38,329 bases of DNA, taken from UHGV virus genome UHGV-1488451. One strand, given 5' to 3'. The DNA comes from a virus. This document shows, one piece after another, positions 1-38,329 of the stretch. The notes beneath the pieces are model-generated. The model was not told where the DNA came from. It did no database searches and saw nothing but the letters and a program-made list of their open reading frames with translations. Within the stretch, counting starts at the first letter, position 1. Every line of letters begins with the position of its first letter. The position numbers were made by a program, and so were the translations under genes.

Positions 1-72
1 GGACACCCACGCGTCGCCGGACACCCACGCGTCGCCGAACACCCACGCGTCGCCGGACACCCACGCGTCGCC
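1..72 (-). repeat. Four more 18-bp units of the same array at the left window edge
   Basis: Units at 1-18, 19-36, 37-54 and 55-72 encode GDAWVS/GDAWVS/GDAWVF/GDAWVS on the minus strand. Confidence 0.9.
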
Positions 73-124
73 GGACAAGTTCGATTCCTTTTCAATGAAA
101 CCGCCGAGTTCGCCTTTATCCACA
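1..124. repeat. Left copy of imperfect terminal direct repeat (wrap-around of the circular map)
   Basis: nt 1-124 align base-for-base with 38206-38329. By eye there are 3 mismatches (window nt 15, 45, 69) and an exact match over 70-124. Confidence 0.9.
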
Positions 125-222
125 TATCGGCTTGGGATGTTCTCGGTGGCTTGAATACGGTACAGCGTGCGGCCAAAGACCGTGATTGTTTCGTCAGTGA
201 GGCGGTACTTTCTTTCGCTCAT
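1..222 (-). CDS. 5' portion of the same hexapeptide-repeat protein (internal-start version), truncated by the window edge
   Basis: ATG at 222 is preceded by aaaaaggaaagaata (SD-like AAGGAAAG). It encodes MSERKYRLTDETITVFGRTLYRIQATENIPSRYVDKGELGGFIEKESNLS followed by repeats. Confidence 0.75.
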   Translation of the reverse strand, partial: MSERKYRLTDETITVFGRTLYRIQATENIPSRYVDKGELGGFIEKESNLSGDAWVSGDAWVFGDAWVSGDAWVS

Positions 223-645
223 TATTCTTTCCTTTTTGGTGAATCTTTCGATGCATCGGTTGATGTCGTCGATGGTGATGTTTCCCCAGGGTTCGTTGAT
301 GTCCCTGTCAAGTTGCGGGGTTCGTGCGGGGAGTGTTCCTCCTAATGCGTATGGACGTTGGTTGTTTTTTGGGGTGAATTTCATCGGGTGCGGCATGTTG
401 GATGCGCTGGCATGGTTGCTGAAAGTTCCTGGGATGATTTGCAGCAGCCCGACCCCGTGTTCTACTGGGGCGTTTTGGTCTCGAATAGGCGCTATTGCGG
501 GGCCTGATTCGGCTTGGATTTCCTCGAGCACCCGTTTTATGTGGATTGCGTTTAGGATTCTTTGGCAAATGAGAGCTGTTGCTTTGATTTTGAGAAGTTG
601 TTGCATTGCTGTTAGCGGCTCAAAACTGCGGATGGTGTTAGGCAT
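1..645 (-). CDS. Longest version of the same ORF: an SLT-like lytic transglycosylase module (223-645) reads in frame, with no stop, into the repeat protein
   Basis: I translated the frame codon by codon and found no stop from 819 down to nt 1. ATG candidates are at 765, 645 and 606. The 645-223 segment encodes ...EEIQAESGPAIAPIRDQNAPVEHGVGLLQIIPGTFSNH...DRDINEPWGN. It shares E-S-G and the exact 12-aa string GVGLLQIIPGTF with the SLT domain of the tape measure. The true start is uncertain and the SD before 645 is poorly spaced. Confidence 0.45.
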   Translation of the reverse strand, partial: MPNTIRSFEPLTAMQQLLKIKATALICQRILNAIHIKRVLEEIQAESGPAIAPIRDQNAPVEHGVGLLQIIPGTFSNHASASNMPHPMKFTPKNNQRPYALGGTLPARTPQLDRDINEPWGNITIDDINRCIERFTKKERIMSERKYRLTDETITVFGRTLYRIQATENIPSRYVDKGELGGFIEKESNLSGDAWVSGDAWVFGDAWVSGDAWVS

Positions 646-1025
646 GCTCCGTGGATGGTGCCGATGTTGGGGTTGGGGGTGAGGGCGTTTCGAATGGGGC
701 GGGCATTTTCTTTGGTCTTTCTTTGGTAGTGGTTTTGATGGTTTGAGGCCCCCTGTGTTGTTCATCCACTGTGGGGGCTTTGTGGCGTGGCGCGGGGTTG
801 CACCGCGCTTTTGTGCTGCTCACGCCTTTGCTGTGTTCTTTCTCGTGTTCGTTCCCTCCGGTTTTTGTCCGGGTTCCTGGTGTCCTTGCCGATGCTTTGC
901 GAGAGCTTCGTCACGTTATCCCAACGTGAGGTAAGTATCTTTCACGAGGCAGCTAATTAAATTTTCACACATCATAAGGTTCTTTTTATCTTCCGCTTGT
1001 GTTGCTCTTAGCGGGCGATGACTTC

Positions 1026-1054
1026 ATTTAAGACCAGCTGATCGAATCTTGCAA
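1026..1054 (-). promoter_or_regulatory. Candidate leftward early promoter (TTGCAA-17 nt-TTAAAT on the minus strand)
   Basis: The minus strand reads ttgcaa gattcgatcagctggtc ttaaat. The call rests on a sigma-70-like pattern only. Confidence 0.35.
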
Positions 1055-1131
1055 CAGCCACCATCAAATGCCACCCCCGACCGCTACCCCCATTTGATTA
1101 AAAAACATTAATCTACCTGCCTCATTGCATA

Positions 1132-1664: not shown

Positions 1665-2000
1665 ATGACCACCATCACCCTCAACAACCTCGACTGGAAC
1701 ATCGCCCCCGCTGAATGGGGCATCGCATACGGCGAAATGGCAAGCCTCCCCACAGAAGAATCCACCCACAACGGCCCACAGTTCATTGTCGATTTCGATC
1801 TTGACGGCACCCGCAAAGCACGCCTCGCAGTAGACCCAACCATTGCTGGAATGAGCCGCGAAAAGGGCATGGCATTCAGCGACGACACCAACGATTGGCC
1901 AGTACTCGATGCACTGTTTGGGCGCGAACAATGGCAGCAATGGCTTGCTGACAAGACCGAGGAAATGCGCGCCCTAGACTCCGAAGACCTCGACGACTAA
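1665..2000 (+). CDS. Hypothetical acidic protein (111 aa), lysogeny-region cargo
   Basis: ATG at 1665 is preceded by aaaggaccaagacca (SD AAAGGA). The track ORF at 1578 extends upstream over the promoter. I recognise no family. Confidence 0.65.
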   Translation: MTTITLNNLDWNIAPAEWGIAYGEMASLPTEESTHNGPQFIVDFDLDGTRKARLAVDPTIAGMSREKGMAFSDDTNDWPVLDALFGREQWQQWLADKTEEMRALDSEDLDD

Positions 2001-2014
2001 CCACCATGCAAACC

Positions 2015-2034
2015 CCGGGGGCTTCGGCCCCTGG
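2015..2034 (+). terminator. Stable hairpin with UUCG tetraloop after the 111-aa ORF (no clear U-tract)
   Basis: ccgggggc-ttcg-gcccctgg forms an 8-bp stem including one G-U pair. It is followed by attaagg, so terminator function is doubtful. Confidence 0.35.
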
Positions 2035-2049
2035 ATTAAGGAACCAACA

Positions 2050-2346
2050 ATGAACACCCCCTACACCTTCAAGCACGTCATGTCAGGACGCTGGGAAGTC
2101 ATCCACAAAGGCAAAGCATTCGCAGTCATCGAGAGAAGCACCTGCTATTCCTCAAAAGACGGCATCATGGAATCAGCTGAATTGTGGGTAATCATTGACC
2201 CCGTAACTGAAATTCACCAGCAAGGGAAACTCCTGAACACCCTCTACCCGACTGAGTGGGGGCACCGCACCTACCGCGAGGCAGCAGCCACTGCCTGGGA
2301 AAACTACCAGAAATACGGCGCACCTGTTCCCATCGGACGAAACTAA
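2050..2346 (+). CDS. Hypothetical protein (98 aa), lysogeny-region cargo
   Basis: ORF with SD aaggaa 6 nt upstream of the ATG. I recognise no family. Confidence 0.65.
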   Translation: MNTPYTFKHVMSGRWEVIHKGKAFAVIERSTCYSSKDGIMESAELWVIIDPVTEIHQQGKLLNTLYPTEWGHRTYREAAATAWENYQKYGAPVPIGRN

Positions 2347-2353
2347 ACCAGAC

Positions 2354-2377
2354 CCCCGCCACCATGCGGGGTTTCAT
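2354..2377 (+). terminator. Hairpin plus T-run after the 98-aa ORF
   Basis: ccccgc (2354-2359) pairs with gcgggg (2366-2371) across the loop caccat, followed by tttcat. Confidence 0.5.
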
Positions 2378-2392
2378 GAAAAGGAAGCAATA

Positions 2393-2557
2393 ATGAACTG
2401 CGATATTCTTATCCTCGTTGTTATTATATCGAACTTAGCCATGCTGGCGGTATTATATCCGCGCGAAATGGATAGGGTACTCGATTCGTATATAGAAACT
2501 ATCCGCAATTGGATTCAGGCTATCTGCAAAATTTACAGGAAGGTGCACCGTGGATAA
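2393..2557 (+). CDS. Small AT-rich ORF encoding a 54-aa predicted single-pass membrane peptide
   Basis: It is not in the ORF track because it is under 60 aa. ATG 2393 follows aaaaggaagcaata (SD AAGGAAG). The product is MNCDILILVVIISNLAMLAVLYPREMDRVLDSYIETIRNWIQAICKIYRKVHRG, with a hydrophobic N-terminus and basic C-terminus. My hand count gives about 41 percent G+C (68/165), far below the flanks. Confidence 0.55.
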   Translation: MNCDILILVVIISNLAMLAVLYPREMDRVLDSYIETIRNWIQAICKIYRKVHRG

Positions 2558-2659
2558 TCAAACCCGAAACTCTGATGGTGTTTCTCGCCACAATCCCGCT
2601 TTGCCCACCAGTTCCCCGGCGGAGCGCGGGCGCATGGTTTATGATCAGGGGTGCCGCGT

Positions 2660-2893
2660 ATGACCACCCCGCTCGTCGAAATCACGCTACCCGGCGGCGG
2701 GGTGGCCTGGTCCATCACCGCAGTGCTTGACCACACCGGCCTATCACAATCATCATTCACCGCATACGTTGCACGCGGACAAGCCCCCGCCCCCACCCAT
2801 CATGTTGAGCGCACTAGGCTATGGGACGCTAAGGAAATCAAAGCCTGGTGGGCAACCCGCCCCGGAAAACCCGGCCGCCCCGCACGAACCTAA
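2660..2893 (+). CDS. xis: AlpA/excisionase-family HTH protein, likely Xis
   Basis: TGLSQSSFTAYVARGQAPAPTHHVERTRLWDAKEIKAWW matches the AlpA/Xis pattern. It lies immediately upstream of int on the same strand. ATG 2660 is preferred over the track GTG at 2651. Confidence 0.65.
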   Translation: MTTPLVEITLPGGGVAWSITAVLDHTGLSQSSFTAYVARGQAPAPTHHVERTRLWDAKEIKAWWATRPGKPGRPART

Positions 2894-2896
2894 CCC

Positions 2897-2926
2897 AGCC
2901 CCCACCCCGCACGGTGGGGGCTTTCC
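2897..2926 (+). terminator. Hairpin (10-bp stem) plus TTTCC after xis-like gene
   Basis: agcccccacc (2897-2906) pairs with ggtgggggct (2913-2922). A second hairpin, tccgcat/atgcgga, lies at 2924-2946. Confidence 0.5.
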
Positions 2927-3010
2927 GCATGACAAAACAATGCGGACACAAAACCCCCAATAATTAAATAAAAACCACATCTGACCTGCAACAATGCAAG
3001 GACAAAAACA

Positions 3011-4135
3011 ATGGCATCAATCAAACGATATGACACCGCCAAAGGAACAAAATGGCGCGTCCAATACCGCACCCCAGACGGCAAAAGCCGCACCAAAACC
3101 GGATTCCGCACCAAAAGCGAAGCCGAAAGATGGGTGGCCACACACACCACCTCCATCATCAATGGCACCTGGGTTGACCCCAACGCAGGCAACATAACCA
3201 TCCAGGCCCTCGGCACACGATGGATGGAAACCCGCACCCACCTGAAACCCTCAACAGCACGCGTCGAAGCCCTCGACTACAAAAACCACGTCCTCCCACA
3301 CTGGGGGCACCGGCGCATCAAAACTATCAAACCGTCGGAAGTGCAAGCCTGGGTGTCAGCCAGCGCCCAATCACCCTCAACCACCAGGCACCACCATGCG
3401 ATCTTGTCGAAGATTCTAGACATGGCCGTCCTCGACAACCTCATACCCGCGAACCCGGCTAAAAGCGTCACCCTGCCCCGCAAGAACAACCCAACAAAGG
3501 TGTACCTCACCATCAGCCAATTGAAGCGCCTAGCGGACGAGGCAACGGTTCGGGGTGAGCTGATCTGGCTGTTGGGAACCACTGGCCTTAGGTGGGGTGA
3601 GGCCGCTGGCTTGCAGGCGCAAGACTTGGACCCGCTGAACGGGCGCATCAGGGTGGCGAGGAACGCAGTAACGGTAGGGGGCGAGGTGGTTGTCGGAACC
3701 CCGAAAACTCATGAGCGGCGCACAGTGGCTTGCCCTGGGCATGTGATGGGGATGCTTGAAGATGCGGCACGTGGTAAGCCGCGCACCGGGTGGTTGTGGG
3801 AGTCGCCTGCGGGCGGGCCTATGCGGCTTCCGGGGAAGGGTTCTTTTTTTCATTCGGCGTTGGGGCGCGTGCGCGCCGAAGACCCGTCGTTTCCTTCGTT
3901 GACTATTCATGGTCTTAGGCATGTGGCAGCCGGACTTTTAGTTTCGGCGGGGGCGAATGTGAAGGTGGTGCAAAAGCAGCTTGGACACAAGTCTGCGGCT
4001 ATGACGTTGGATGTGTATGCGGAGTTGTTTGACGATGACTTGGATGCGGTGCGTGGGGCGTTGGATGCTTTGGTGGGTTCTTTGGGGAATGTCGTCAAAT
4101 TGTCGTCAAATCGGGGTTTTGGTGACGCGGTTTAG
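3011..4135 (+). CDS. int: Tyrosine integrase (phage integrase family)
   Basis: 374 aa with an N-terminal SAM-like/arm-binding region (KWRVQYRTPDGKSRTKTGFRTKSEAERW). The C-terminal catalytic motifs are LRWGEA...HGLRHVAAGLL...LGHKSAAMTLDVYAELF. Confidence 0.95.
   Translation: MASIKRYDTAKGTKWRVQYRTPDGKSRTKTGFRTKSEAERWVATHTTSIINGTWVDPNAGNITIQALGTRWMETRTHLKPSTARVEALDYKNHVLPHWGHRRIKTIKPSEVQAWVSASAQSPSTTRHHHAILSKILDMAVLDNLIPANPAKSVTLPRKNNPTKVYLTISQLKRLADEATVRGELIWLLGTTGLRWGEAAGLQAQDLDPLNGRIRVARNAVTVGGEVVVGTPKTHERRTVACPGHVMGMLEDAARGKPRTGWLWESPAGGPMRLPGKGSFFHSALGRVRAEDPSFPSLTIHGLRHVAAGLLVSAGANVKVVQKQLGHKSAAMTLDVYAELFDDDLDAVRGALDALVGSLGNVVKLSSNRGFGDAV
4088..4110 (+). repeat. Arm-type repeat copy 1: aatgtcgtcaaattgtcgtcaaa (two tandem TGTCGTCAAA motifs), inside the int 3' end
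   Basis: Exact 23-bp match to 4298-4320. Confidence 0.85.
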
Positions 4136-4156
4136 GGGTTTGACCTTGGGTTTTTT

Positions 4157-4184
4157 TGGTGCCCCCAGTCGGACTCGAACCGAC
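4157..4184 (-). other. tRNA 3'-end fragment (T-arm + acceptor 3' strand + ACCA), presumed attP core; not a functional tRNA gene
   Basis: The minus strand reads gtcgg-ttcgagt-ccgac tgggggc acca. No matching 5' acceptor strand (gccccca) occurs about 70 nt upstream. Confidence 0.75.
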
Positions 4185-4297
4185 TTTCTGGGTTTTGTCC
4201 ATACCGTTGTTTACCTGCATGTTTGCTGGTCAAGTGCGGTTTTTGCCGTGTAGCAACCCTGTTGAATTTGCGTGTATTTACGTGTGTTTTAGTGTGA

Positions 4298-4320
4298 AAT
4301 GTCGTCAAATTGTCGTCAAA
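4298..4320 (+). repeat. Arm-type repeat copy 2: aatgtcgtcaaattgtcgtcaaa
   Basis: Exact 23-bp match to 4088-4110, on the other side of the tRNA-like core. Confidence 0.85.
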
Positions 4321-4399: not shown

Positions 4400-4912
4400 C
4401 TAAACCTCATCACGAGCCTGCTTAGCAAGCTCCCGAATGTCCGCCTGAATTATCTGCGGAATCACCGGCAAATCATCCGGACGCTTACCCGGCCACTTCC
4501 TCGACGCCCATTCCTCACGAGCCGCGATATGCTTCACAGCCGTGCGGTGACGTTGGTTGATGTCCGTCATGCGGGTGGTCAGGTCGGTGATCTGGGTGTC
4601 TTGATTGGTTAGCTTGGTGTGCATGTCTGTGACTTGCTGTGCGAGCCGGTCATGTTGCGCGGTCACGGTGTTCAGGGTGGTTTCCATCACCCCGACGGTG
4701 GCGGTTAGGTTGTTCACAATTTGTTGTGACTCGTCCAAGACTAGGCGTCTTTCCTCCACCTTCCCGTCAGCGTGCCCTTTGCGGTGCGCTGTCCACGCGG
4801 CAAGAATCACACTCACAGCGGTGGCGATGCCACCCACCCAGCCAACGATCTCACTGATGCTCACGGCCTCAGCCACCTGCGGTGGCGGCATTTGTGCCGC
4901 CAACCACCACAT
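4400..4912 (-). CDS. Membrane-anchored coiled-coil protein, last gene of the lysis cassette (function unknown)
   Basis: 170 aa with an N-terminal TM segment (IVGWVGGIATAVSVILAAW) and a long heptad-like T/Q-rich helix. It follows the holin. Confidence 0.7.
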   Translation of the reverse strand: MWWLAAQMPPPQVAEAVSISEIVGWVGGIATAVSVILAAWTAHRKGHADGKVEERRLVLDESQQIVNNLTATVGVMETTLNTVTAQHDRLAQQVTDMHTKLTNQDTQITDLTTRMTDINQRHRTAVKHIAAREEWASRKWPGKRPDDLPVIPQIIQADIRELAKQARDEV

Positions 4913-4915
4913 GGC

Positions 4916-5263
4916 TTACCCCTGGTGAGAGTCAAACGTTGGAAGCGGTGCCTCCTGAGAAGCCGCATCAACTGCGGCTGCCTCATCAGACACACGCTCC
5001 ACAACCGACGGAGTGATGCTGCCCTTCATGGAAGCCTGAATGACAACACCTGCGGCACCTGCGATGACAGCCACGACAGCGGCAACATCAGCGGGCAGCT
5101 GGCCAGCCATGAGGCCAACAACACTCAGCACCTGCAGCACCGCCTGGGCAGCTGCGACCAGGGTGTTCTTGCGGCGCGCGAACCACGGCTGCTCAGCAAG
5201 CAGGTTCGTTGCGGCCTCTTCGATGATCTGCACGGACTTGGAATTCAGGTTATGGCGTGCCAT
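4916..5263 (-). CDS. Putative holin
   Basis: 115 aa with two hydrophobic segments (LVAAAQAVLQVLSVVGLMAG, VAAVVAVIAGAAGVVI). It lies immediately downstream of the endolysin with overlapping stop/start context. Confidence 0.65.
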   Translation of the reverse strand: MARHNLNSKSVQIIEEAATNLLAEQPWFARRKNTLVAAAQAVLQVLSVVGLMAGQLPADVAAVVAVIAGAAGVVIQASMKGSITPSVVERVSDEAAAVDAASQEAPLPTFDSHQG

Positions 5264-5264
5264 T

Positions 5265-6743
5265 TTATTTTCCCTTCATGGTTTGGATTTGCTGTTGAAT
5301 GTTGGCGATGTCGCGCCGGGCGGCGGCGACACCATCCACGAGGGTGAGGTTTTCACCCTTCGAGTTCTGGCCCAACTGCGGCCAGGGGCCAAGCTGACCG
5401 CTGATGTATTCCACTTGTTGGATTAGTCGGTCAAGCTTTTTGTTGGTTTCCTGCGCCGCGACTTTGGCGTCGTTCAGCGCGGCGACTTGCTCATGTCCGA
5501 ATAGGGACACTGGTCCTCCTTTGATTTGGATGTTTGGGTTTGCGGGTGCGGTCGAGTAGGCGTAGCCCTTCGGCAGTATCAGCGAGGCCAGCTGGTCAAG
5601 GCTGATCCAGTAGCCGTATGGGCTGAACCATGAATCCGCTATCCACACGGCACGCCCCTGGTCACCGTCTCGATATCCCATTGCGGCAATGTAGTGGTAC
5701 ACCACGCCCCCGCCATAGGCTGGGGAGACGGAGCCGTACACGCCGCGCGGGTAGTTCGACGGTGGAGCAACGATGTTGCAGATGACACCATGACCAGCTT
5801 TGACTGAGGTTTTGATGTCGTTCCACAGGCGTTCCTGCTGGTCCGCCGTTGGTGGGTCATTAGGCATCTCTACTGACTGGTATTCAGCCCCTGGGATGTG
5901 TTTGTTCAGCACCTTCGGGAAGAACCCAATCCAGTCTGTGCCGTTGACTGTGGTGCCCAGCTCCACAGCGAAATCGCCTTCCGGCTTGAGAACACCGGTG
6001 GCGGCGAACACCACAGTCTGGGTGGATGCGGGCCCGCAATTGTAGTAGGTGTCCTGTACCACGGCCTCACGGCTGTAGGGGATTTCTACTTCTTCACCAG
6101 CCTGGTTGACCAGGGTTTCACCCGCGCCGCCGCCGGTTGAACCTTCAGGAAGCAGTGACTCCCCCAAGGTCAGGCAGAAGTCGAAGCGGCGTTGCCGGTC
6201 GTCGATTCCGTTGGTTCCTCCATTGATCGCGCGGGTTGCGGCTTTGAATCCTTCGTACCGCTGCCAGCCCTCTAGGTTCGGGTCTGCTGCCTGGTCAGCA
6301 AATTCATTGAGCAGTGGCCGAGCCACCACCCAGTACCAAGCAGCAGCCATGAATCCCCACTTCGGGGTGGCCACCAAATCCGGGTCATTCACAAACAGGT
6401 TCGGGTCGCTGGTGATTCCACGATCATGGCACCATCGACCGAACGACCCGTAGTTGTTCCGTCCCGTGAGCTGTATGGGGCCGCGACCATGGAAACGTGC
6501 ACCATCACCAGGGTAGACGTTGCCGAGATCGCCACGGCCCTCATAGTTGCTGGTGAAGTAGTCATACCCGCCAAGTTCCTGCATGAATTGCAGGCCCACG
6601 GACTCATGTCCGATCTGCGCGCACCACATTGCTGCGCGCGCCACGGTCGTGATGTCCGCGAACTTCATGGCTTCATTCATGGGTTGCACAAACGCCGAAT
6701 CGACGTTGGAACCCATTGCTCGGTTAAGTGTTCCTAGGTCCAT
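5265..6743 (-). CDS. Multidomain endolysin: N-terminal GH19 (chitinase-like) muramidase plus papain/C39-like cysteine peptidase plus C-terminal tail
   Basis: GH19 motifs are QIGHESVGL and FHGRGPIQLTGRNNY. The peptidase motifs are YYNCGPAS and a later YHYIAAMGY His region. ATG 6743 follows aaaggag; the track GTG at 6749 is too close to the SD. Confidence 0.88.
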   Translation of the reverse strand: MDLGTLNRAMGSNVDSAFVQPMNEAMKFADITTVARAAMWCAQIGHESVGLQFMQELGGYDYFTSNYEGRGDLGNVYPGDGARFHGRGPIQLTGRNNYGSFGRWCHDRGITSDPNLFVNDPDLVATPKWGFMAAAWYWVVARPLLNEFADQAADPNLEGWQRYEGFKAATRAINGGTNGIDDRQRRFDFCLTLGESLLPEGSTGGGAGETLVNQAGEEVEIPYSREAVVQDTYYNCGPASTQTVVFAATGVLKPEGDFAVELGTTVNGTDWIGFFPKVLNKHIPGAEYQSVEMPNDPPTADQQERLWNDIKTSVKAGHGVICNIVAPPSNYPRGVYGSVSPAYGGGVVYHYIAAMGYRDGDQGRAVWIADSWFSPYGYWISLDQLASLILPKGYAYSTAPANPNIQIKGGPVSLFGHEQVAALNDAKVAAQETNKKLDRLIQQVEYISGQLGPWPQLGQNSKGENLTLVDGVAAARRDIANIQQQIQTMKGK

Positions 6744-6772
6744 ATTCACTCCTTTCGCTGTTGTTTGTGCTC

Positions 6773-9760: not shown

Positions 9761-9781
9761 TAGCACCTTCCTAAAGCGCAT

Positions 9782-12757: not shown

Positions 12758-12758
12758 A

Positions 12759-29649: not shown

Positions 29650-29669
29650 GGGGTTTTGGGGGTTGATAT

Positions 29670-29700: not shown

Positions 29701-29740
29701 TTGTCTGCGACTGAGTTTAGCAGTGTGGTTGCCCGTTTTG

Positions 29741-30310: not shown

Positions 30311-30558
30311 GGTTTGGGTTCTTGGAGTTCTTTGGTGGCTTTGGTGGTGAGGATGATGGAGCCGTAGGTGTCGAAGGCTAGGTATCCGTGGTCGATGAGG
30401 ATGTTGGTCATGGTGTGGTTGATGCGTTTGCCGGAGGCGAAGCGTCGGAGGGCGTTGATGTGGTTGGGGGTCATTGGTTTGTGTCTTTCTTGGTGGTGAG
30501 GTGGGTGATTGTTCCGGGGTGGGTGAGGGTGCTTATGGCGGTGGTGATGATGATGCAC
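30307..30558 (-). CDS. Small hypothetical protein (start uncertain: 30558 or 30474)
   Basis: The 83-aa ORF has a first 28 aa (MHHHHHRHKHPHPP...) that may be untranslated leader. The ATG at 30474 gives a 55-aa product. Confidence 0.5.
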   Translation of the reverse strand: MHHHHHRHKHPHPPRNNHPPHHQERHKPMTPNHINALRRFASGKRINHTMTNILIDHGYLAFDTYGSIILTTKATKELQEPKP

Positions 30559-30574
30559 GCGATGATGGTGAGGG

Positions 30575-31108: not shown

Positions 31109-31238
31109 TGGAACATGCTTTCTATGTGGGGGTGGTGGTTTGTTTTGGGTTGGGGGTGGGTGTTATTTTCGCGCGTGAGGCTTGGGGCGGGTTGGTGGCG
31201 CCTGGTGGCCTGTTGGGCGGAGCGTGGTCACAACAGTC

Positions 31239-32378: not shown

Positions 32379-32540
32379 TACGCACCGAGTCCAACATTCA
32401 AGCAGACAACACTGATTGACCTGCACGTTTCCTTATCCAGGAACAAGCCGTACCGGCGAACAGCGAAAATGGCGATGCCTTGCGGCGTGAACAAATTCAC
32501 CCATTCAGGTTTCGGGGCATTCATTTCCCTTATCTTTCAT

Positions 32541-32575
32541 CAAAACCACCCCCACAACACACGCTGCGGGGGTGG
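32541..32575 (-). terminator. Rho-independent terminator after ssb
   Basis: The minus strand reads ccaccccc-(14 nt)-gggggtgg followed by ttttg. Confidence 0.7.
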
Positions 32576-32590
32576 CAAAAACAAATACTG

Positions 32591-33028
32591 TTAGAACGGA
32601 GGTTCGCCCGTATCCTGCGGGGTGGCCGGGGGTGAAGAACCCCACGCGCCCCCCTGCTGAGAAGGCGCATACCCAGGGCGCGCCTGCGAACCAGCAACCT
32701 CAACATCAGCCACAGACTGCAACGCATCAACCGCCATGACCTTAATCATCGACCGTTGACTACCGTCCTTGGCTTCCCACTCCTCAGTGACCAGCTTTCC
32801 AACCACCGTGACCTTAGAACCCTTCCTCAGGTAGGACATTGGTTCAGCAGCCTCACCCCACAAGGTGACTTGGATGAACAACTGGTTTGTGGTCTCCCAC
32901 TCACCAGTCGGGGTTTTCCTGCTGTCGGAGCACGCGAGGCGGAAGGTGCTGCATGGTTTGCCGTTGGAGGTGAACCGGAGTTCAGGGTCGCTGACCAGTC
33001 TTCCGGGGAAATGCTGGTACGGAATCAT
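32591..33028 (-). CDS. ssb: Single-stranded DNA-binding protein
   Basis: 145 aa with OB-fold motifs (GRLVSDPELRFTSNGKP...VTLWGEAAE), a Gly/Pro/Gln-rich tail and a terminal acidic EPPF tip. Confidence 0.92.
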   Translation of the reverse strand: MIPYQHFPGRLVSDPELRFTSNGKPCSTFRLACSDSRKTPTGEWETTNQLFIQVTLWGEAAEPMSYLRKGSKVTVVGKLVTEEWEAKDGSQRSMIKVMAVDALQSVADVEVAGSQARPGYAPSQQGGAWGSSPPATPQDTGEPPF

Positions 33029-33894
33029 GGCATGCCTCCCTCGGCTTCGGCCGCGAGGGCTTCCATCTCAGCAAGGGTGTTGTAGCGCTCACTGTAGGCG
33101 TGCTCTGCGGCTTCGCGCTGCGGGTGATCGGCGGGGATTCCCCTGGCTTGCTCGGCCACCGTGTTCAGGTCGTCGATGCTGGCTGCGGTGTTGAATGCCG
33201 CGATGATGCTGTCAACGTCGATCTGTGGTGCCTGCTTGGATTCGAGGGCGGCTTTCACGCCTGAGGCGCCGCGCTGCTGGCGGGGCTTGTCGAGGCGTGT
33301 GGCCTTGGCCTGCACGCGGCTTTCCTCGAGCTGCAAATCCTCAGCCGTGTAGGTGATTCCCAACAACACGTCGGGGGCCAGTTTGCGGCACACCTCGGAT
33401 AGTGCCTTGGCGTAAAGCATGGCTTGCGGGTCGCTTTGGTACTTCTTGTTTGAGGTGTAGCCTGCACGCTTTGCCCGGTCGATGGTCCATGTACTGGTTT
33501 CCTGCTCACCCTTCGGCGAGGTTCCAGTCACCGTGACGCTTTCATCTGTGGACTCAATGGTGTCAAACCTGTAGCCGCGCGCCTTCAAAAGCCCAGACAT
33601 AGTGCGCGCGTAGATCGCGGGTGTGCCGTGCACAACGAAAATCTGCTGCAGGGACTGCAGGGGCTTCAACCCCAATTCAGCACCGTAGAGTATTGCCGCT
33701 GCTCCGTTTTCCGGCTTGCCCTTGTAGGTCTGTGGCACCATGTCGGTGCTGCACAATGCCACCGCTAGTTTGTGGGCGGTTTCCATTGCCTGTGCTTGCC
33801 GCATTAGCAGGTCTATGGCGTCGTCACTGACGTCGCCGGTGGGCATTACCTCAGCCTCGGCGGGTGGGGTGATGCGGTCGATTTCCTGGCTCAC
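33025..33894 (-). CDS. recT: RecT-family single-strand annealing recombinase
   Basis: 289 aa with VPQTYKGKPENGAAAILYGAELGLKPLQSLQQIFVVHGTPAIYA, typical of RecT. Confidence 0.88.
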   Translation of the reverse strand: MSQEIDRITPPAEAEVMPTGDVSDDAIDLLMRQAQAMETAHKLAVALCSTDMVPQTYKGKPENGAAAILYGAELGLKPLQSLQQIFVVHGTPAIYARTMSGLLKARGYRFDTIESTDESVTVTGTSPKGEQETSTWTIDRAKRAGYTSNKKYQSDPQAMLYAKALSEVCRKLAPDVLLGITYTAEDLQLEESRVQAKATRLDKPRQQRGASGVKAALESKQAPQIDVDSIIAAFNTAASIDDLNTVAEQARGIPADHPQREAAEHAYSERYNTLAEMEALAAEAEGGMP

Positions 33895-34322
33895 TGGTTG
33901 CCCTCCTTATTGGGGTTTACGACGTAGATTTCGTAGCCTCGGCCGTAGAACCCGTTGTCTTCGTAGCCTTTGGCGGTGATGATTTCGGTGGCCTTGACTT
34001 CAGACTCTGCCCACACGAACACTCGAACGATGTGGTCGCCGATTGCGTTGTAATCCTGGGTGAGGTCTTCTTCGGCGATCTTCACGCCGGTGATTGCATG
34101 GTCGTAGGGCGCAAGGCGGCTTATCCACCAGTTCCCCGCGCTGCAGCCTCCGCAGCCCTCGTTGCCTACGGTGTAAAGTCGGACACCGTTGTCGAGGATG
34201 AGGGCTTCATCGTCGTCATCGACTTCAACGATTTTACGGCCGATGAGAAGTTCTTTGAGGTCTTCGAGGCTTTCACCATCGATTTTCTTATCCCAGTCGC
34301 CTTCGTAGTGGTTGAAGGTCAT
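33891..34322 (-). CDS. Hypothetical protein (143 aa, CGGC motif)
   Basis: ORF with the SD aaaggag, lying between the exonuclease and recT. I recognise no family. Confidence 0.6.
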   Translation of the reverse strand: MTFNHYEGDWDKKIDGESLEDLKELLIGRKIVEVDDDDEALILDNGVRLYTVGNEGCGGCSAGNWWISRLAPYDHAITGVKIAEEDLTQDYNAIGDHIVRVFVWAESEVKATEIITAKGYEDNGFYGRGYEIYVVNPNKEGNQ

Positions 34323-34579
34323 TGTTCAAGCTCCTTTGCTTCCGTAATGCCGTCTTTGGTGAGCAGGTGGGTTACACCACGGGGGTGGTTGTCCATGTTG
34401 ATTGCGGCGGGCTGGAAAATCCCCACCCATTCGCCGCTTATGTGCTTTTTCACCAGGTCTTGGCACTGCATGTACGTTTCGGCCTGCACCGCCAAGATCA
34501 TGTCAGGGTGGGCGGGCGCCCACTCAGGGTGCGTGTTTTTACGGTACTTCTCGTGAAATATCACGTAAAGGGTTTTCAT
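34319..34579 (-). CDS. Hypothetical protein (86 aa)
   Basis: ORF translationally coupled to its neighbours. I recognise no family. Confidence 0.55.
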   Translation of the reverse strand: MKTLYVIFHEKYRKNTHPEWAPAHPDMILAVQAETYMQCQDLVKKHISGEWVGIFQPAAINMDNHPRGVTHLLTKDGITEAKELEQ

Positions 34580-35586
34580 AGCTTTGCTTTCAGGTTCGGG
34601 CGCAGCATGACCCCACCGCGTGAGGTTGCTGCGCGGGTAGCGATGGTGGTTTCACCCATGAGGGCTTTTTTGGCGTTGCCCATGCGGTCAAGCAGCCTGG
34701 TTTTCGCCGCTGTCGCTGCCTGCGCGGCGGCTTTCTCCATGCGCAGGGCGGTGAGGATTTCTTCGGCCTCGGCAGGGGTGAGCTGCACTTCCTCATCCGG
34801 GTTGATGTCCGTATGCAGGCCCCGCACTGTTTGGTAGGTGCTGGTCGTGTCATCAAGCGGCGGCGGAGTGTCTTCCTGCAGGGATGCCCACCAGCCTTTG
34901 GCCACGTCCACCAGCCCGTCGAACAGGTCAGCGTCCCAGGGGATTTCATGTTCCTCGGCTTGGTGGAACGGCCCCAGCACAAGAACACTTGCCTGGTGAA
35001 TGCCGCTGACTCCCATTTGCCACACCACTTGCGTGTGGTAATCCGCTGGCACACTGTCTGGTTCGCCGGGTTTCCCCCAGTCGTCGAGGCTTCTAGCGGT
35101 TTTGCATTCCAGGATTCGGAATGCCCTGCCCCTGCGTGCCCTGCGGTCGAGTGTGGCCAGGTTGGGGAATGGCAGGTCATCACGGGTGTAGGCGACTTCC
35201 CCGGCGTTTAGTTGCCATGTTTTGGGTTGGCGGCGTGCCCACCAGTCAGCTAGCGCCAACTCGGCGGCGTGCCCCCAGTCCGCAATGTCTTGTTTCATCG
35301 GGGTTGGCGGGATTCGGCCGGCCATTTCGTGCCACAGGGTGTATTGGCTGGTGAATCTGCTGACTCCGAGGATTGCTGGGATTTTCGACGCGGTGATCAT
35401 TCCCCGCCATTCGTCGGAGCCTGGCGGCGGGGGATTCTTGACGGTTCGGCTTGTCATCGTCACAGCACCAGGATTAGCGACAGTGTGAAGATCAGGGTGC
35501 ATAGCGCACCGAGGATTGCGATGCTGATGACTGGTGGTGGTTCTTGGAATCGTTGTGGGGGTTTGCGGTGGGTCATAGTAGTTCAC
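34576..35586 (-). CDS. YqaJ/lambda-exonuclease-like PD-(D/E)xK recombination exonuclease (start uncertain)
   Basis: GSDEWRGMITASKIPAILGVS...WGHAAE...LDRR...ILECKT motifs are present. The N-terminal ~45 aa of the track ORF look like low-complexity leader; the internal Met at aa 44 is possible. Confidence 0.85.
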   Translation of the reverse strand: MNYYDPPQTPTTIPRTTTSHQHRNPRCAMHPDLHTVANPGAVTMTSRTVKNPPPPGSDEWRGMITASKIPAILGVSRFTSQYTLWHEMAGRIPPTPMKQDIADWGHAAELALADWWARRQPKTWQLNAGEVAYTRDDLPFPNLATLDRRARRGRAFRILECKTARSLDDWGKPGEPDSVPADYHTQVVWQMGVSGIHQASVLVLGPFHQAEEHEIPWDADLFDGLVDVAKGWWASLQEDTPPPLDDTTSTYQTVRGLHTDINPDEEVQLTPAEAEEILTALRMEKAAAQAATAAKTRLLDRMGNAKKALMGETTIATRAATSRGGVMLRPNLKAKL

Positions 35587-35848
35587 CTACTTCGAATGTG
35601 CGGTCAATGTATTTGGTGGGGTTGAGTACGACATCGGCTAGGGTGTCGTGAAAGCCGCAGAGGAACAGGTCACTGTCCGGGGCTTGTTTGCGGTCGCAGC
35701 CGGTGTAACAGCATGTCTTCTCCTCTGCCCCTGGTTTTGGGCAGGGGTTGGGGGCTAGCATGAGTTCGATTTTCCGGCGGATTGCGGCTACCCTGCTCGG
35801 GGCTATTACCCTGCGCCCTGGGCGTTGGGGTGCCTCGTCGTCTAGCAT
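35573..35848 (-). CDS. Small Cys-rich hypothetical protein
   Basis: 91-aa ORF with C-x-(7)-CC-x3-C...C-x2-H, possibly zinc-binding. Confidence 0.55.
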   Translation of the reverse strand: MLDDEAPQRPGRRVIAPSRVAAIRRKIELMLAPNPCPKPGAEEKTCCYTGCDRKQAPDSDLFLCGFHDTLADVVLNPTKYIDRTFEVGELL

Positions 35849-35985
35849 GCTGTGAGGTCTTCCATGTGCAGCACGTCTATGAGGTTAACCAGGGCGTTTT
35901 TGATGTTCTGGTTGCTGTCGATCTCCGGCTGGTACACCTTGTGGAGGATGTGCACGGCGTCTTGGAGCTGTTCGAGTTTGCTCAT
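35842..35985 (-). CDS. Small hypothetical ORF (47 aa), not in the track
   Basis: It fills the gap between neighbouring genes. The product is MSKLEQLQDAVHILHKVYQPEIDSNQNIKNALVNLIDVLHMEDLTAC. Its stop overlaps the next ATG (atgctag). Confidence 0.45.
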   Translation of the reverse strand: MSKLEQLQDAVHILHKVYQPEIDSNQNIKNALVNLIDVLHMEDLTAC

Positions 35986-35988
35986 CAC

Positions 35989-36249
35989 TTATCCCACCCA
36001 CTCCCTGGCCATGAGGCCGAGCATGAACGCGACCAGCACCATCGCCCCGATGCTGAGTGCCCCGAGGATTTCCCCCACGGTCATTTCCTCATTGGTGGAG
36101 CCGTGTTTCGGTGCGCGGCTTTCGCGTTCGGTGAGCACCCCAACCGCGCGGGCAAGCGCGGTTTCCGGGTCGTTTTCTTTCGCCCTCATGGCTTGCCCCG
36201 CAGGGTGCCGAAGACGGGCAAGCTCATACTCAAACTGCTTATCGGTCAT
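35989..36249 (-). CDS. Small protein with C-terminal transmembrane segment
   Basis: 86 aa with the SD gaaggaa. The C-terminus ILGALSIGAMVLVAFMLGLMA is hydrophobic. Confidence 0.6.
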   Translation of the reverse strand: MTDKQFEYELARLRHPAGQAMRAKENDPETALARAVGVLTERESRAPKHGSTNEEMTVGEILGALSIGAMVLVAFMLGLMAREWVG

Positions 36250-36473
36250 GCTGTTTCCTTCATGTATTCAATGGCTGTGCGGTAGCTGATCAGGATGCGC
36301 GCTCCGGGGCGGCGTTGGCTTGCGGGGAGTTCGCCGGAGCGAATCAGGTTGCGGATGGTGCTGTGGTGGAACCCGGTTAGCCTGCAGAACTCTCCGACGG
36401 TGAGCCATGTTTTCTTTTCCCCGAACAGGGCTTCAATGTCGTCGAGGGTTTGCTTTTCGATTTGGTCTAGCAT
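36246..36473 (-). CDS. Excisionase-family helix-turn-helix DNA-binding protein (early operon)
   Basis: 75 aa. WLTVGEFCRLTGFHHSTIRNLIRSGELPA...ILISYRTAIEYM matches the excisionase-type HTH pattern. Confidence 0.75.
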   Translation of the reverse strand: MLDQIEKQTLDDIEALFGEKKTWLTVGEFCRLTGFHHSTIRNLIRSGELPASQRRPGARILISYRTAIEYMKETA

Positions 36474-37390
36474 TAGTTGCTCTCCTCAAACATGTCGTTG
36501 ATTGCGAAGAAGCCTTGGTTGCGTTCGATTGGGAGGTTTTTGCGTTCCCCGATGTTTTCCCGCCGGACTGTGACCGTGCCGAAGCAGTCGCCGTTGTTGG
36601 CGACGAATGGTGTGAGGGTGCTTTCGGTTGAGGTGGTGAGGATGGTGGCGTCTTTGATGTGCTTGATGCGTGTGGTGTTGATGCGCATTGGGGGCACAAT
36701 ATCGGGGGCTTTGGCGTTGAATGCGGCTTGCGCTCGGTGGATTACACCATCAATCCAGTCGTGTTTGCTTGCCCGGAACACGCGGTATTTCATTTGGTGT
36801 TTGGTTGCGGCGATGAGTTTACGGCGCGTGACGAACAGGGTGATTGACTGTTTTGATTTGGGGATTTTCGCCACCCATGTGTTGAGGATGTGCAGCTCTT
36901 CGGCGGGTAGCAGGATTTCCGTGTCGTGTGGGAGGCTGTCGTCAAGCATCCCCACCCTGTGTGTCACTGTGACGTTTTTATCTGTGGCGATGATGAACGC
37001 CTCGGAGTCCTTCACTATGAGCTTCATCTGCTGAACTTCATCATCCCCGTCGGTTTCCTTCGACGTCGCAACCGGATACACCGCAGCCAAAGCCTGCTTC
37101 AAAACCGGCTGCTCGCACCGCACAATCGCAAACCCGCGATCAAGGTTCTTGTCCTCCAGATCGCCCCGGAGAACCGCCCACTCGAACACCCCTTGCAGGT
37201 GCTCGAAGCGCGCGTCGATGAACTGCTTGCACTCGTCAGGCAGCATGCCGCGTTCAATCAGTTTGCCGGGGTTGTTCATCACCCATTGTTGAATGATCTT
37301 CTCGATGTCTTCGGTTTGGATGTTGAGCTTTGGGTATGCGCTTCGGAAGGCTTCGAGTGTTTCTTCGGTGGTGTAGGTATAGTGGGGCAT
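36473..37390 (-). CDS. Hypothetical early protein (305 aa); weak by-eye resemblance to a sliding-clamp-like repeated beta domain
   Basis: ATG 37390 follows a strong SD (ccaaggaggagaca). The track start at 37495 overlaps the terminator. The functional guess is low confidence. Confidence 0.6.
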   Translation of the reverse strand: MPHYTYTTEETLEAFRSAYPKLNIQTEDIEKIIQQWVMNNPGKLIERGMLPDECKQFIDARFEHLQGVFEWAVLRGDLEDKNLDRGFAIVRCEQPVLKQALAAVYPVATSKETDGDDEVQQMKLIVKDSEAFIIATDKNVTVTHRVGMLDDSLPHDTEILLPAEELHILNTWVAKIPKSKQSITLFVTRRKLIAATKHQMKYRVFRASKHDWIDGVIHRAQAAFNAKAPDIVPPMRINTTRIKHIKDATILTTSTESTLTPFVANNGDCFGTVTVRRENIGERKNLPIERNQGFFAINDMFEESN

Positions 37391-37407
37391 TGTCTCCTCC
37401 TTGGAGT

Positions 37408-37456
37408 CGAAAAGGGCACCTGAACCAGTGATTGGCGTTACAAGTTTCAGGTGCCC
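37408..37456 (-). terminator. Strong rho-independent terminator early in the early operon
   Basis: The minus strand reads gggcacctgaa-(21 nt)-ttcaggtgccc, an 11-bp perfect stem at 37414-37424 and 37446-37456, followed by ttttcgac. Confidence 0.8.
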
Positions 37457-37481
37457 GCGTTTGTGTGTGAAGGGTTTTAGG

Positions 37482-37727
37482 TTAGATGTTGACAAGATCG
37501 AACCACCCGACCAGGTAGTCTGAGTCGCCCATCATGGTTGCAATGCGGAGGGCGTCGGCGGCGGTGACGTATTTCCGGCCATGCCTAAAAAGCTCCAAAT
37601 CCGATACCTGGTATCCGAGTGTGGCCGCCAACCGTTCATCGGTGTTCAGGTTCAGCATGTGCGCAATGTTTTCTAGCGCGCCGCGCCGGAATCGGTATTT
37701 AGGCGCGGTCATTGTCATCACTGTCAT
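37482..37727 (-). CDS. Small HTH-like early regulator (Cro/antirepressor-position)
   Basis: 81 aa with the SD aaaggagaag. NLNTDERLAATLGYQVSDLELFRHGRKYVTAADALRIATMMG looks XRE-like. Confidence 0.6.
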   Translation of the reverse strand: MTVMTMTAPKYRFRRGALENIAHMLNLNTDERLAATLGYQVSDLELFRHGRKYVTAADALRIATMMGDSDYLVGWFDLVNI

Positions 37728-38329
37728 TGGCTTCTCCTTTGTCTTCCTTCTCTGGTTTCCATGATTCGGCGCGAATGGCGATCATGTCGTGGATTGCTTG
37801 GTATTCGGCTTGCCAGCGTTCTTGTGTGGCTTCGTCGTGGCGCTTCCAGTAGTTGGCGCGGCGTTCGGCGACGGCTTGCATCATTGTGGTTAGGGTGCCT
37901 TCCCAGCATCCGATGCAGACGAATATTTCATCGGTTCCGGTGTGCGCCGCAGTTACCCAGCGGCTTTCTACTCCTGCAGGGCCAGCAACGAAGATGTGTT
38001 GTTTTTGGAACACCTCCGCGTTGCCGGACACCCGCGCGTTGCCGGACACCCACGCGTTGCCGGACACCCGCGCGTTGCCGGACACCCACGCGTTGCCGGA
38101 CACCCGCGCGTCGCCGGACACCCACGCGTTGCCGGACACCCACGCGTCGCCGGACACCCACGCGTCGCCGAACACCCACGCGTCGCCGAACACCCGCGCG
38201 TCGCCGGACACCCACGCGTTGCCGGACACCCACGCGTCGCCGAACACCCGCGCGTCGCCGGACACCCACGCGTTGCCGGACAAGTTCGATTCCTTTTCAA
38301 TGAAACCGCCGAGTTCGCCTTTATCCACA
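37699..38329 (-). CDS. Hexapeptide-repeat (beta-solenoid-like) protein of unknown function, 3' portion; the 5' end lies across the window wrap
   Basis: This is a 209-aa ORF running off the window edge. It has the lead-in DKGELGGFIEKESNLS, then 15 hexapeptide repeats, then a non-repeat C-terminal domain with a CIGCW motif. This repeat architecture with an N-terminal YRLTDETI...LYRI lead-in recurs in phage proteins usually annotated as hypothetical or polymer-forming; that statement is from recall, not a search. Confidence 0.8.
   Translation of the reverse strand, partial: VDKGELGGFIEKESNLSGNAWVSGDARVFGDAWVSGNAWVSGDARVFGDAWVFGDAWVSGDAWVSGNAWVSGDARVSGNAWVSGNARVSGNAWVSGNARVSGNAEVFQKQHIFVAGPAGVESRWVTAAHTGTDEIFVCIGCWEGTLTTMMQAVAERRANYWKRHDEATQERWQAEYQAIHDMIAIRAESWKPEKEDKGEANDSDDNDRA
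38008..38277 (-). repeat. 15 x 18-bp head-to-tail tandem repeat array, in-frame coding (hexapeptide G-D/N-A-W/R-V-S/F)
   Basis: The plus-strand unit is ggacacccacgcgtcgcc. 14 of 15 units differ only at unit positions 2 (g/a), 9 (a/g) and 15 (c/t). The last unit, gaacacctccgcgttgcc, encodes GNAEVF. Confidence 0.95.
38206..38329. repeat. Right copy of imperfect terminal direct repeat
   Basis: Counterpart of nt 1-124. The mismatches fall only at the variable positions of the 18-bp repeat unit. Confidence 0.9.

Follow-up and report, generated by a model that had tools for sequence, protein, structure and literature searches.

Intense strand skews of two signs meet at a probable cos site in a temperate phage genome, a single-copy variant of the GRINS phenomenon

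Results

The 38,329-nt virus sequence UHGV-1488451 (the whole stretch is called the window below) is a circularly assembled phage genome of ~38.2 kb from a temperate siphovirus, in which segments rich in G+T on the plus strand alternate with segments rich in A+C. The most extreme of these is a 1.9-kb block of four genes beside the probable cos site, the physical end of the genome. A gene map was drawn from Pfam and PHROG matches (Table 1). From position 4400 onward these matches are confined to minus-strand open reading frames (ORFs) and identify terS, TerL, portal, protease, capsid, tail tube, tape measure, endolysin, HNH, RusA, Rep, SSB, RecT and YqaJ; an earlier note on this DNA had assigned nearly all genes beyond 4400 to the minus strand, which holds for every one of them. 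The plus strand carries a lysogeny module that extends from a repressor-like gene (1161-1535) through the integrase (3011-4135), and all other genes are on the minus strand. An early operon runs from ~800 across the junction of the circle to 29365 and encodes the YqaJ exonuclease, RecT, SSB, Rep, RusA, two small or unknown ORFs and HNH. A late operon begins with terS (29319) and ends with the lysis genes (4400). The order HNH - cos - terS - TerL - portal, with cos at its predicted place and with an integrase and a repressor elsewhere on the map, is the layout of a BFK20-like temperate cos siphovirus.

Exact look-ups of the proteins returned metagenome-derived records labelled 'Caudoviricetes sp.', and the protein clusters hold 127 variant sequences for TerL and 132 for the integrase, many of them on contigs of ~38.0-38.5 kb; one sample is labelled as a human oral metagenome. 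The closest homologues of RusA come from Corynebacteriaceae, and those of TerL from a beta-like tox+ corynephage (54% identity) and from phages of C. glutamicum (45-47%). These nearest relatives point to Corynebacterium as, very probably, the host. Host flanks were sought through a 51-kb scaffold, which turned out to be a concatemeric assembly of the same circle with no host DNA. A megablast search of the whole window against the phage collection gave short tape-measure and other small matches only, with no close annotated relative. A peptide-pattern scan for RusA in IMG/VR and a tblastn search with the DUF3853-like protein against annotated phages gave no match, every tblastn match to RusA was below 45% identity, and ARAGORN detected no complete tRNA in the window.

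The earlier note had described the alternating skew from six hand counts of G+T per 60-nt line, all of which proved exact (11, 14, 14, 49, 47 and 42), and each of the fifteen blocks that it listed carries the sign given to it, with plus-strand G+T of 0.59-0.72 in the G+T-rich blocks and 0.38-0.41 in the A+C-rich ones. While plus-strand G+T across 300-nt windows ranges from 0.28 to 0.81, the highest 300-nt value in each of 200 base shuffles averaged 0.57 and never exceeded 0.62. Sense-strand G+T at third codon positions runs from 0.02 to 0.88 among co-oriented genes, and the signal peaks at third and four-fold degenerate positions. Shuffling of synonymous codons failed to reproduce the pattern (per-gene z from -13.6 to +11.2; sum of z² = 1489 over 46 genes), and penalised change-point detection found eight segments, with the signal present at third positions. 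Of the seven change points, four are no more than 50 nt from a gene boundary, a proximity shared by 16% of random positions. GC skew and TA skew, computed in 150-nt windows with a 30-nt step, are correlated over the window (Pearson r = 0.77; shuffles, -0.004 +/- 0.05), with mean absolute values of 0.18 and 0.24, respectively. Taken together, the skew blocks are real, extreme and statistically secure, and more pronounced than the note had described.

The consequence is that co-oriented genes are written in opposite dialects, one ending its codons in G or T and the other in A or C, as had been proposed from the sequence (G+T at four-fold degenerate sites, hereafter four-fold G+T, of 0.72-0.93 against 0-0.11). 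The value can change abruptly between adjacent co-oriented genes, from 0.01 to 0.48 in one case and from 0.93 to 0.51 in another. A single host codon usage is, as previously argued, insufficient for both dialects, and amino-acid composition tracks the skew: the block proteins contain 10.5% His, 11.2% Thr, 9.6% Pro and 0.2% Val, while Val makes up 9.6% of the late gene products. The suggestion that the skew ignores the coding strand was borne out in part. Two dialects do share one strand, but the plus-strand lysogeny genes at 1665-3520 are A+C-rich in their own sense strand, and the circle as a whole fits two polarity domains. The sense strand is G+T-rich only in the late genes; since the sense strands of early, block and lysogeny genes are rich in A+C whichever way the genes point, a transcription-associated skew, in which the sense strand is G+T-rich, does not describe this genome.

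The extreme block begins and ends 1 and 19 nt from gene boundaries according to change-point detection. Within it GAG is absent while GAA occurs 26 times, AAG occurs once against 29 AAA, and a single Val codon is found in ~540. The bias extends beyond silent sites. Sense-strand G+T is 0.23-0.33 at the first codon position, 0.27-0.36 at the second and 0.02-0.14 at the third, A and C make up 62-77% of the minus strand in the intergenic spacers, and the proteins are raised in His, Thr and Pro and lowered in Val and Gly. Mean GC skew and TA skew over the block are 0.54 and 0.57. The block was recovered at 96-100% identity in more than 20 independent assemblies and is therefore not an artefact. Promoters and terminators predicted around the block were no more numerous than in shuffled sequence.

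These data bear on translational selection, under which A- and C-ending codons would be favoured for their Watson-Crick pairing with GNN and UNN anticodons and the dialects would reflect tRNA use by gene class. The strength of the signal at third positions is what such selection predicts, yet the first and second positions and the amino acids shift as well, and so do the untranslated spacers. Furthermore, C- and T-ending codons generally share one tRNA, and corynebacteria prefer G-ending codons where the block uses AAA, GAA and CAA instead. We consider this explanation highly improbable.

Several reading-frame anomalies were noted in the block. Plus-strand ORFs of 154, 195, 109 and 260 aa were considered as genes and rejected; they have no family matches and arise from the depletion of stop codons on both strands. 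An antisense ORF of 154-164 aa (window positions 29320-29784, plus strand) has been called in place of the 94-aa HNH protein in the comparison sequences L129, L148-L152, L155 and L157, while HNH was called properly on short contigs. The depletion of stop codons in every one of its six reading frames explains these gene-caller errors in the block. In L129 (identical to L140) the RusA gene at 10001-10339 is frameshifted, and its 112-aa product diverges after residue 74 at a lysine-rich KRLK-N/K-K stretch, which could be an assembly error or a pseudogene.

Whether the bias of the block is still enforced was assessed by polymorphism in 15 distinct natural variants, using four-fold sites at which A or C is the major allele and the adjacent early genes as control. 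Minor alleles that remain within the A/C class are as frequent in the block (41/223 = 0.184) as in the control (96/521 = 0.184; p = 1.0). Minor G/T alleles, on the other hand, are ten-fold fewer in the block (6/223 = 0.027) than in the control (147/521 = 0.282; p = 8e-19), and five of the six are singletons. A count polarised over three lineages gave one change from A/C to G/T where ~27 were expected; the transitions polarised in the same manner across the block (G>A 10, A>G 11, T>C 3, C>T 6) are balanced and too few to decide. The ten-fold depletion of G/T variants at unchanged A-C diversity indicates an active filter, not a relic or simple deamination. The composition of the block is thus actively maintained: G/T variants of the sense strand are kept out, A and C drift freely into one another, and the filter acts on base class rather than on the codon. 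To our knowledge there is no earlier population-level evidence for the active maintenance of a skew of this kind.

This result weighs directly on the deamination of exposed single-stranded DNA, of the type described for mitochondrial DNA, which the earlier note had raised as a source of the skew. The sense-strand variants moving toward G/T are those that are depleted, while A-C variation stays at the control level, and deamination of the 3′ tails left by 5′→3′ resection from cos predicts the opposite sign. By our estimate, a pure mutator would need a strand- and region-specific asymmetry of ~250-fold on one strand of 1.9 kb. A broader version, strand-asymmetric mutation either through deamination or through G.T-mispair errors during repair synthesis from cos nicks or a nearby origin, is in keeping with the form of the skew, in which keto bases (G, T) and amino bases (A, C) are exchanged as in a transition signature. 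However, short of the ~250-fold asymmetry, a mutator raises the reverse rate only and does not deplete sense-strand A-to-G and C-to-T variants, and four-fold sites with 0-1% G/T lie far beyond the slight, chromosome-scale replication skews of bacteria.

Late genes close to cos show a weaker filter of the opposite sign that fades with distance. Where G or T is the major allele in these genes, minor A/C alleles outnumber minor G/T alleles 1.24-fold near cos and 1.67-fold farther away, compared with 2.15-fold in the early control; where A or C is the major allele, minor G/T alleles exceed minor A/C alleles 3.05-fold near cos, 2.5-fold farther away and 1.53-fold in the control. The strong driver seems confined to the block at the right end.

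The position at which the polarity switches was located by cumulative keto-skew, which reaches its minimum at 29320 and, in raw form, peaks at 1601. G and T predominate on the plus strand from 29320 over the junction to ~1620, and the rest of that strand is A+C-rich or neutral, so that the circle divides into two polarity domains with borders at 29320 and ~1600-1620. Contigs of many independent assemblies start or stop at 29287-29328, and the annotation of corynephage BFK20 places HNH, a 3′-protruding cos and terS in the same order. The contig ends, the BFK20 layout and the position between HNH and terS together suggest that the region of 29320 is probably the cos site. If so, the 3′ tail expected from 5′→3′ resection of the cut ends would be the A+C-rich strand on both sides. 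To the right it would be the minus (sense) strand of the block, which is 78% A+C, and to the left the plus (antisense) strand of terS-TerL-portal, which is ~62% A+C.

A switch of this polarity, with a G+T-rich leading strand, is also what a bidirectional replication origin at 29320 would produce, and the recurrence of the switch in four lineages (described below) is likewise compatible with strand-asymmetric mutation. The feature that resembles an origin, a cluster of iterons at 31912-32032 predicted from sequence to be the probable replication origin, nevertheless lies inside the G+T-rich side and not at 29320, and the edges of the block are steps at gene boundaries. Considering these points alongside the polymorphism, we regard asymmetric mutation as an unlikely cause.

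Three corynephage lineages with different gene content (L131, L004 and L134) show a corresponding switch, which brings the number of lineages with it to four. In L131 the sense strand changes from A+C to G+T at the start of the packaging genes, with four-fold G+T of 0.11-0.28 followed by 0.77-0.82 and a cumulative minimum at 15815. The same switch is present in L004 (0.35-0.40, then 0.68-0.72 decaying to ~0.5; minimum at 9665), and the cumulative minimum of L134, at 20242, lies 14 nt before the terminase gene. In prophages with a related TerL the cos-side switch is weak, averaging +0.034 in other Actinomycetia (standard deviation 0.049, n = 26) and -0.008 in Collinsella, whose loci represent essentially one prophage family.

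Homologues of the block genes in other corynephages are close to neutral, with four-fold G+T of 0.23-0.48 for RusA, 0.36-0.54 for the DUF3853-like protein, 0.56 for the 83-aa ORF and 0.34-0.35 for HNH; homologues of TerL span 0.36-0.75. Relative to proteins of 61-65% identity, the replacements in RusA (V to I, A to T, R to K or H) correspond to G-to-A changes on the sense strand. The neutrality of these homologues elsewhere points to a dialect acquired in place rather than inherited.

The comparison also addresses a second origin raised by the earlier note, a mosaic of segments exchanged between relatives whose skews have opposite signs. In a set of ~15 lineages with 3-5% divergence, the skew boundaries leave no mark on identity and coincide with no recombination breakpoint, and the sole clear module swap, which involves the endolysin (~5400-7400), falls in unskewed DNA. 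In a more general form, cassettes might retain the composition of an earlier context or donor and have been shuffled side by side. The proximity of change points to gene boundaries fits this, as do a sign flip at a domain border of the integrase, the gene-level patchwork of corynephage LGCM-V6, and the fact that the neutral regions are those typically exchanged (lysis, tail fibre, Rep, repressor), with the endolysin swap directly visible. Such shuffling, though, only shifts the question of how the dialects arose. It is further at odds with the undisturbed identity across skew boundaries in 15 lineages, the neutral homologues of the block genes, the enforcement in place that polymorphism reveals at present, and a sign that is tied to map position in four lineages. 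As an explanation of the skew, inheritance by mosaicism is therefore improbable.

Table 1 Features of the window and their composition
Feature	Positions	Strand	Composition and remarks
Probable cos site (physical genome end), skew sign change	29287..29364	.	between HNH and terS; location inferred
A+C-dialect block	29321..31220	-	change-point segment, plus-strand G+T 0.78, 1.9 kb
HNH endonuclease, 94 aa	29365-29649	-	four-fold G+T 0/42
DUF3853/phrog_12885 protein	29741-30310	-	four-fold G+T 1/83
His-rich 83-aa ORF	30307-30558	-	four-fold G+T 0.11
RusA resolvase	30575-31108	-	four-fold G+T 1/85
Packaging/head genes, G+T dialect	24940..29319	-	shuffle z +4.6 to +11.2; Pfam Terminase_6, TerL_ATPase, Phage_portal, Peptidase_S78 across the set
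terS	28924-29319	-	four-fold G+T 0.72
TerL	27324-28943	-	four-fold G+T 0.75
Portal	26057-27310	-	four-fold G+T 0.82
Prohead protease	24940-26088	-	four-fold G+T 0.73
Moderate G+T-dialect tail/head genes (tape measure, tail tube, capsid, others)	13561..24940	-	four-fold G+T 0.54-0.76; Pfam PhageMin_Tail, Phage_TTP_17, Phage_capsid
Strongest G+T-dialect tail genes	10571..13550	-	four-fold G+T: 191-aa (10571-11146) 0.93, 532-aa 0.75, 263-aa 0.74
Lysis and distal tail genes including endolysin, near-neutral	4400..10568	-	four-fold G+T 0.45-0.60
Lysogeny genes (111-aa, 98-aa, Xis-like 80-aa) and integrase N-terminal domains, A+C dialect in own sense	1665..3520	+	four-fold G+T 0.13, 0.22, 0.23
Integrase catalytic domain and attP-side spacer, G+T-rich	3521..4315	+	plus-strand G+T 0.64 over 3540-4315
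Early operon start: 5′ part of hexapeptide-repeat protein and 62-aa ORF	1..799	-	A+C dialect, four-fold G+T 0.35, 0.29
Early operon, mild A+C dialect	31239..38205	-	four-fold G+T 0.15-0.42 in most genes
Neutral exceptions in early operon: Rep, SSB, two small ORFs	within 31239..38205	-	four-fold G+T 0.48 (Rep), 0.61 (SSB)
Recombination module: SSB, RecT, YqaJ exonuclease	32591-33028, 33025-33894, 34576-35586	-	Pfam/PHROG
Eight 11-nt iterons in Rep initiator gene	31912..32032	.	consensus ~ATTCGGATTCA / TTTCGATTTCG; repeat family D2; phrog_2447 replication-initiator match

Outside the cos-proximal genes the skew is patchy. Patches of opposite sign occur among the moderately G+T-rich tail and head genes, for example at 14200-14900 within the tape-measure gene. 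Paralogous repeats in the same gene (family D4; 13931-13986, 14198-14253, 17501-17556 and 17642-17697) have copies that differ mostly by A-G exchanges on the plus strand, and they represent different dialects within a single gene. A change-point segment at 10611-14040 has plus-strand G+T of 0.39, and the drop from 0.93 to the 0.51 of gene 9843-10568 coincides with a gene boundary. A second segment, 1621-3520, has plus-strand G+T of 0.38; the sign of the skew then flips within the integrase gene at ~3520, which is the border between its N-terminal and catalytic domains (Pfam residues 14-152 and 184-339). Downstream of the integrase, at ~4150-4185 on the minus strand, the sequence GGTTCGAGTCCGACTGGGGGCACCA resembles the 3′ end of a tRNA and may be the attP core. 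In the near-neutral lysis region, L146 and L147 are 50-82% identical to the window over ~5400-7400 and ~94% identical otherwise (endolysin of 464 aa versus 494 aa); the endolysin swap is recent and took place within the species-level cluster. The Rep iterons, which lie 2.6 kb from the skew switch, encode a low-complexity stretch rich in Asn, Arg and Glu.

At the ends of the assembly, positions 1-124 duplicate 38206-38329 at 98% identity. This overlap sits in an 18-nt tandem array, and contigs of relatives read through the junction. The array, GGACACCCACGCGTCGCC, spans window positions 1-124 and 38008-38329, with ~4 copies at the start and at least 12 at the end. Its minus-strand translation is a Gly-Asp-Ala-Trp-Val-Ser hexapeptide repeat in an early protein, and it is a frequent break point of public contigs.

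Among the comparison genomes, LGCM-V6 (L145, a tox+ beta-like corynephage) has a regulator (6112-6348), an integrase (1279-2544) and a tail-region gene (28360-29142) with four-fold G+T of 0.02, 0.23 and 0.18, respectively, the last of them between neighbours at 0.35-0.43, and its regulator and integrase are each A+C-rich in their own sense strand. Over the 21.5 kb of a Leucobacter sp. OH1287 prophage (L105), a further actinobacterial prophage with strong skew, the sense strand is 60-70% G+T throughout, save for one 500-nt window at 33%. The TerL of CAVCBD010000009.1 (L090, labelled Acutalibacteraceae) is 36% identical to that of the window on an otherwise unrelated contig.

Discussion

The closest known counterpart of the skew described here is that of the regions termed GRINS, studied in polyketide synthase genes, in which GC and TA skews are intense and correlated, take both signs along a single strand, change abruptly and are strongest at third positions (Nivina et al. 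2021, PMC8256042). Their proteins shift between Gly/Val/Cys/Trp and Pro/Thr/His/Gln according to sign, and the correlation between the two skews is ~0.70 inside them and 0.09 outside (PMC8256042). GRINS, commonest in Actinobacteria and associated with gene conversion, overlap with genes of endonucleases, integrases and phages and have no known mechanism; by definition they are duplicated, longer than 500 bp and more than 80% identical, although single-copy skewed regions are mentioned (PMC8256042). The phage resembles them in most respects. Mean absolute GC and TA skews exceed 0.15, the level set for GRINS, in both the block and the window, the two skews are correlated (r = 0.77), the block of 1.9 kb and the other segments of 1.9-3.9 kb are longer than 500 bp, and the block combines a third-position peak with an amino-acid shift. 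Duplication is lacking: repeats in the window, direct or inverted, reach at most the 124 nt of the assembly overlap, and the remainder are motifs of 11, 18 and 46-56 nt. For this reason we file the skew as a single-copy, phage-borne variant of the GRINS phenomenon and not as a strict member. It differs further in residing in a phage genome, in being more extreme (0-1% G/T at four-fold sites), in a sign anchored at the packaging end, and in the evidence for a filter. A literature search on strand skew in phages and actinobacteriophages returned mostly mitochondrial and bacterial work, with GRINS as the sole close match.

Two better-known skews share features with that of the phage. In bacterial replication skew the leading strand is G+T-rich, and the phage likewise has a skew of keto/amino type with two domains, whose borders resemble an origin at 29320 and a terminus at ~1600. 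Its magnitude is far larger, however, it is patchy at the level of genes, its switch lies away from the iterons and a filter is seen in polymorphism; the composition is not uniform along each arm, as adjacent co-oriented genes differ sharply. Vertebrate mitochondrial DNA resembles the phage in its A+C-rich sense strand, the rarity of G at third positions and proteins shifted toward Thr, Pro and His. Mitochondrial DNA has one polarity and a gradient attributed to the time spent single-stranded, whereas the phage has two polarities that meet at a point, edges that are steps, and forward variants that are depleted rather than reverse variants in excess.

For the recombination machinery, the nearest parallel is phage lambda. 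Its Red system (Exo and Beta) comprises a 5′→3′ exonuclease and an annealing protein that act from cut cos, mainly at the free right end, which matches the stronger skew on the right side in the phage studied here. We know of no compositional footprint of this kind in lambda. The host of lambda differs in using MutS/MutL, and the link of recombination to skew is our own. A base-class specificity of the required symmetry is found in actinobacterial mismatch repair. The C. glutamicum enzyme EndoMS cleaves only G/T, G/G and T/T mismatches (PMC6159521), and NucS of M. smegmatis repairs exactly these three when they are delivered in vivo by RecT-type oligonucleotide recombineering (PMC11551767). 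Loss of NucS raises homeologous recombination ~10-fold at 90% identity (PMC8228993). Recognition of keto-keto mismatches by NucS/EndoMS shares its base-class symmetry with the skew; it would be a function of the host, and the window carries no NucS gene. No link of NucS to compositional skew or to phage evolution is known to us.

We tentatively favour a model in which the skew results from strand-specific conversion by recombination tails, filtered by NucS. The YqaJ exonuclease, RecT and SSB would repeatedly convert cos-proximal DNA into 3′ tails, which would anneal with related genomes, either co-infecting phages or resident prophages. In Corynebacterium and other actinobacterial hosts, NucS/EndoMS takes the place of MutS/MutL as the only mismatch surveillance and is blind to A/C, A/A and C/C. 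G or T alleles on an incoming tail would then form keto-keto mismatches and be cut or repaired back, while A or C alleles would form A/C, A/A, C/C, A/G or C/T mismatches and survive. The outcome would be a strand-specific biased gene conversion that mimics selection favouring A and C in the tail strand. Fixed cos ends together with the phage's own exonuclease/RecT module would give constant polarity and thereby a sense strand that is almost wholly A+C to one side of cos and G+T to the other side. Lambda terminase shields the left cos end, and if the terminase of this phage does likewise, the effect would be strongest at the free right end. Recent imports such as Rep-SSB, the lysis and tail-fibre genes and the repressor would be regions not yet converted.

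If the same strand is always incoming, the model would explain why the skew is of keto/amino form and why GC and TA skew correlate positively, together with the free interchange of A and C, the signs on both sides of cos, and the selection-like polymorphism. That the phage encodes YqaJ, RecT, SSB and RusA supports it. Of the earlier proposal that regional single-strand exposure, including RecT recombination, lies behind the skew, the direction survives as the one favoured here, while deamination as the driver is not supported.

A number of observations weigh against the conversion model. BFK20 and phi674, virulent phages of C. glutamicum with the same cos layout and a NucS-positive host, show no skew, and in LGCM-V6 the dialects form a gene-by-gene patchwork unrelated to cos. 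GRINS are also known from phyla with MutS/MutL (PMC8256042). Within the genome itself, strong skew occurs far from cos in the lysogeny (1665-3520) and tail (10571-13550) genes, with a flip inside the integrase; the inner edge of the block at 31220 is a step and not a gradient, which requires Rep-SSB to be a later import; and polarised substitutions in the late region (139 keto-to-amino against 103 amino-to-keto) reveal no net drive to G+T. NucS acts with the beta-clamp at replication forks, and its role on phage recombination heteroduplexes is hypothetical. Both the position of cos and the recombination mechanism are inferred.

The principal competitor is direct selection for structure-free nucleic acid. 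A strand composed only of A and C cannot self-pair, which would keep the mRNA unstructured, or the cos-proximal 3′ tails in their role as intermediates of recombination or circularisation; in a variant of this idea, the duplex could be kept free of palindromes and hence of most restriction sites. Such selection would explain why the filter acts by base class and not by codon and why the spacers share the bias, it makes use of the same geometry as the conversion model, since both predicted 3′ tails are A+C-rich, and by calculation a scaled selection of ~4-5 per site would give the observed 1-2% G/T. It offers no evident reason why only 1.9 kb should be near-pure or why the late mRNAs should be G+U-rich. 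A benefit to mRNA predicts no switch at cos in four lineages, palindrome avoidance leaves the sign unset, and the absence of skew from BFK20 and phi674 speaks against it as well. We judge structure-free selection to be rather doubtful, although the present data do not distinguish between it and conversion. Rho/rut sites, R-loops, Chi-like sites, alkylation damage and DNA-entry order were also considered and set aside; none accounts for both the G/C and the T/A asymmetry with the signs seen.

GRINS, as described in 2021, established that intense skews of two signs can recode working proteins and left the mechanism unexplained, and the phage provides a compact natural case. New here is a single-copy, phage-borne, GRINS-like skew anchored at a probable cos site. 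As a study system the genome offers four genes nearly devoid of silent G and T beside genes written in the opposite manner, with a fixed reference point in the probable packaging cut, and ~130 public variant sequences are available per protein cluster; an open question thereby becomes amenable to crosses and recoding. On a practical level, such blocks leave all six reading frames open and mislead gene callers. It is conceivable, though unlikely, that the intense keto/amino skews of Actinobacteria, GRINS included, are a footprint of NucS/EndoMS wherever the same strand is always incoming. Should NucS-filtered conversion prove true, the specificity of mismatch recognition would be tied to the composition of genomes and proteins, and to gene-conversion hot spots, across Actinobacteria.

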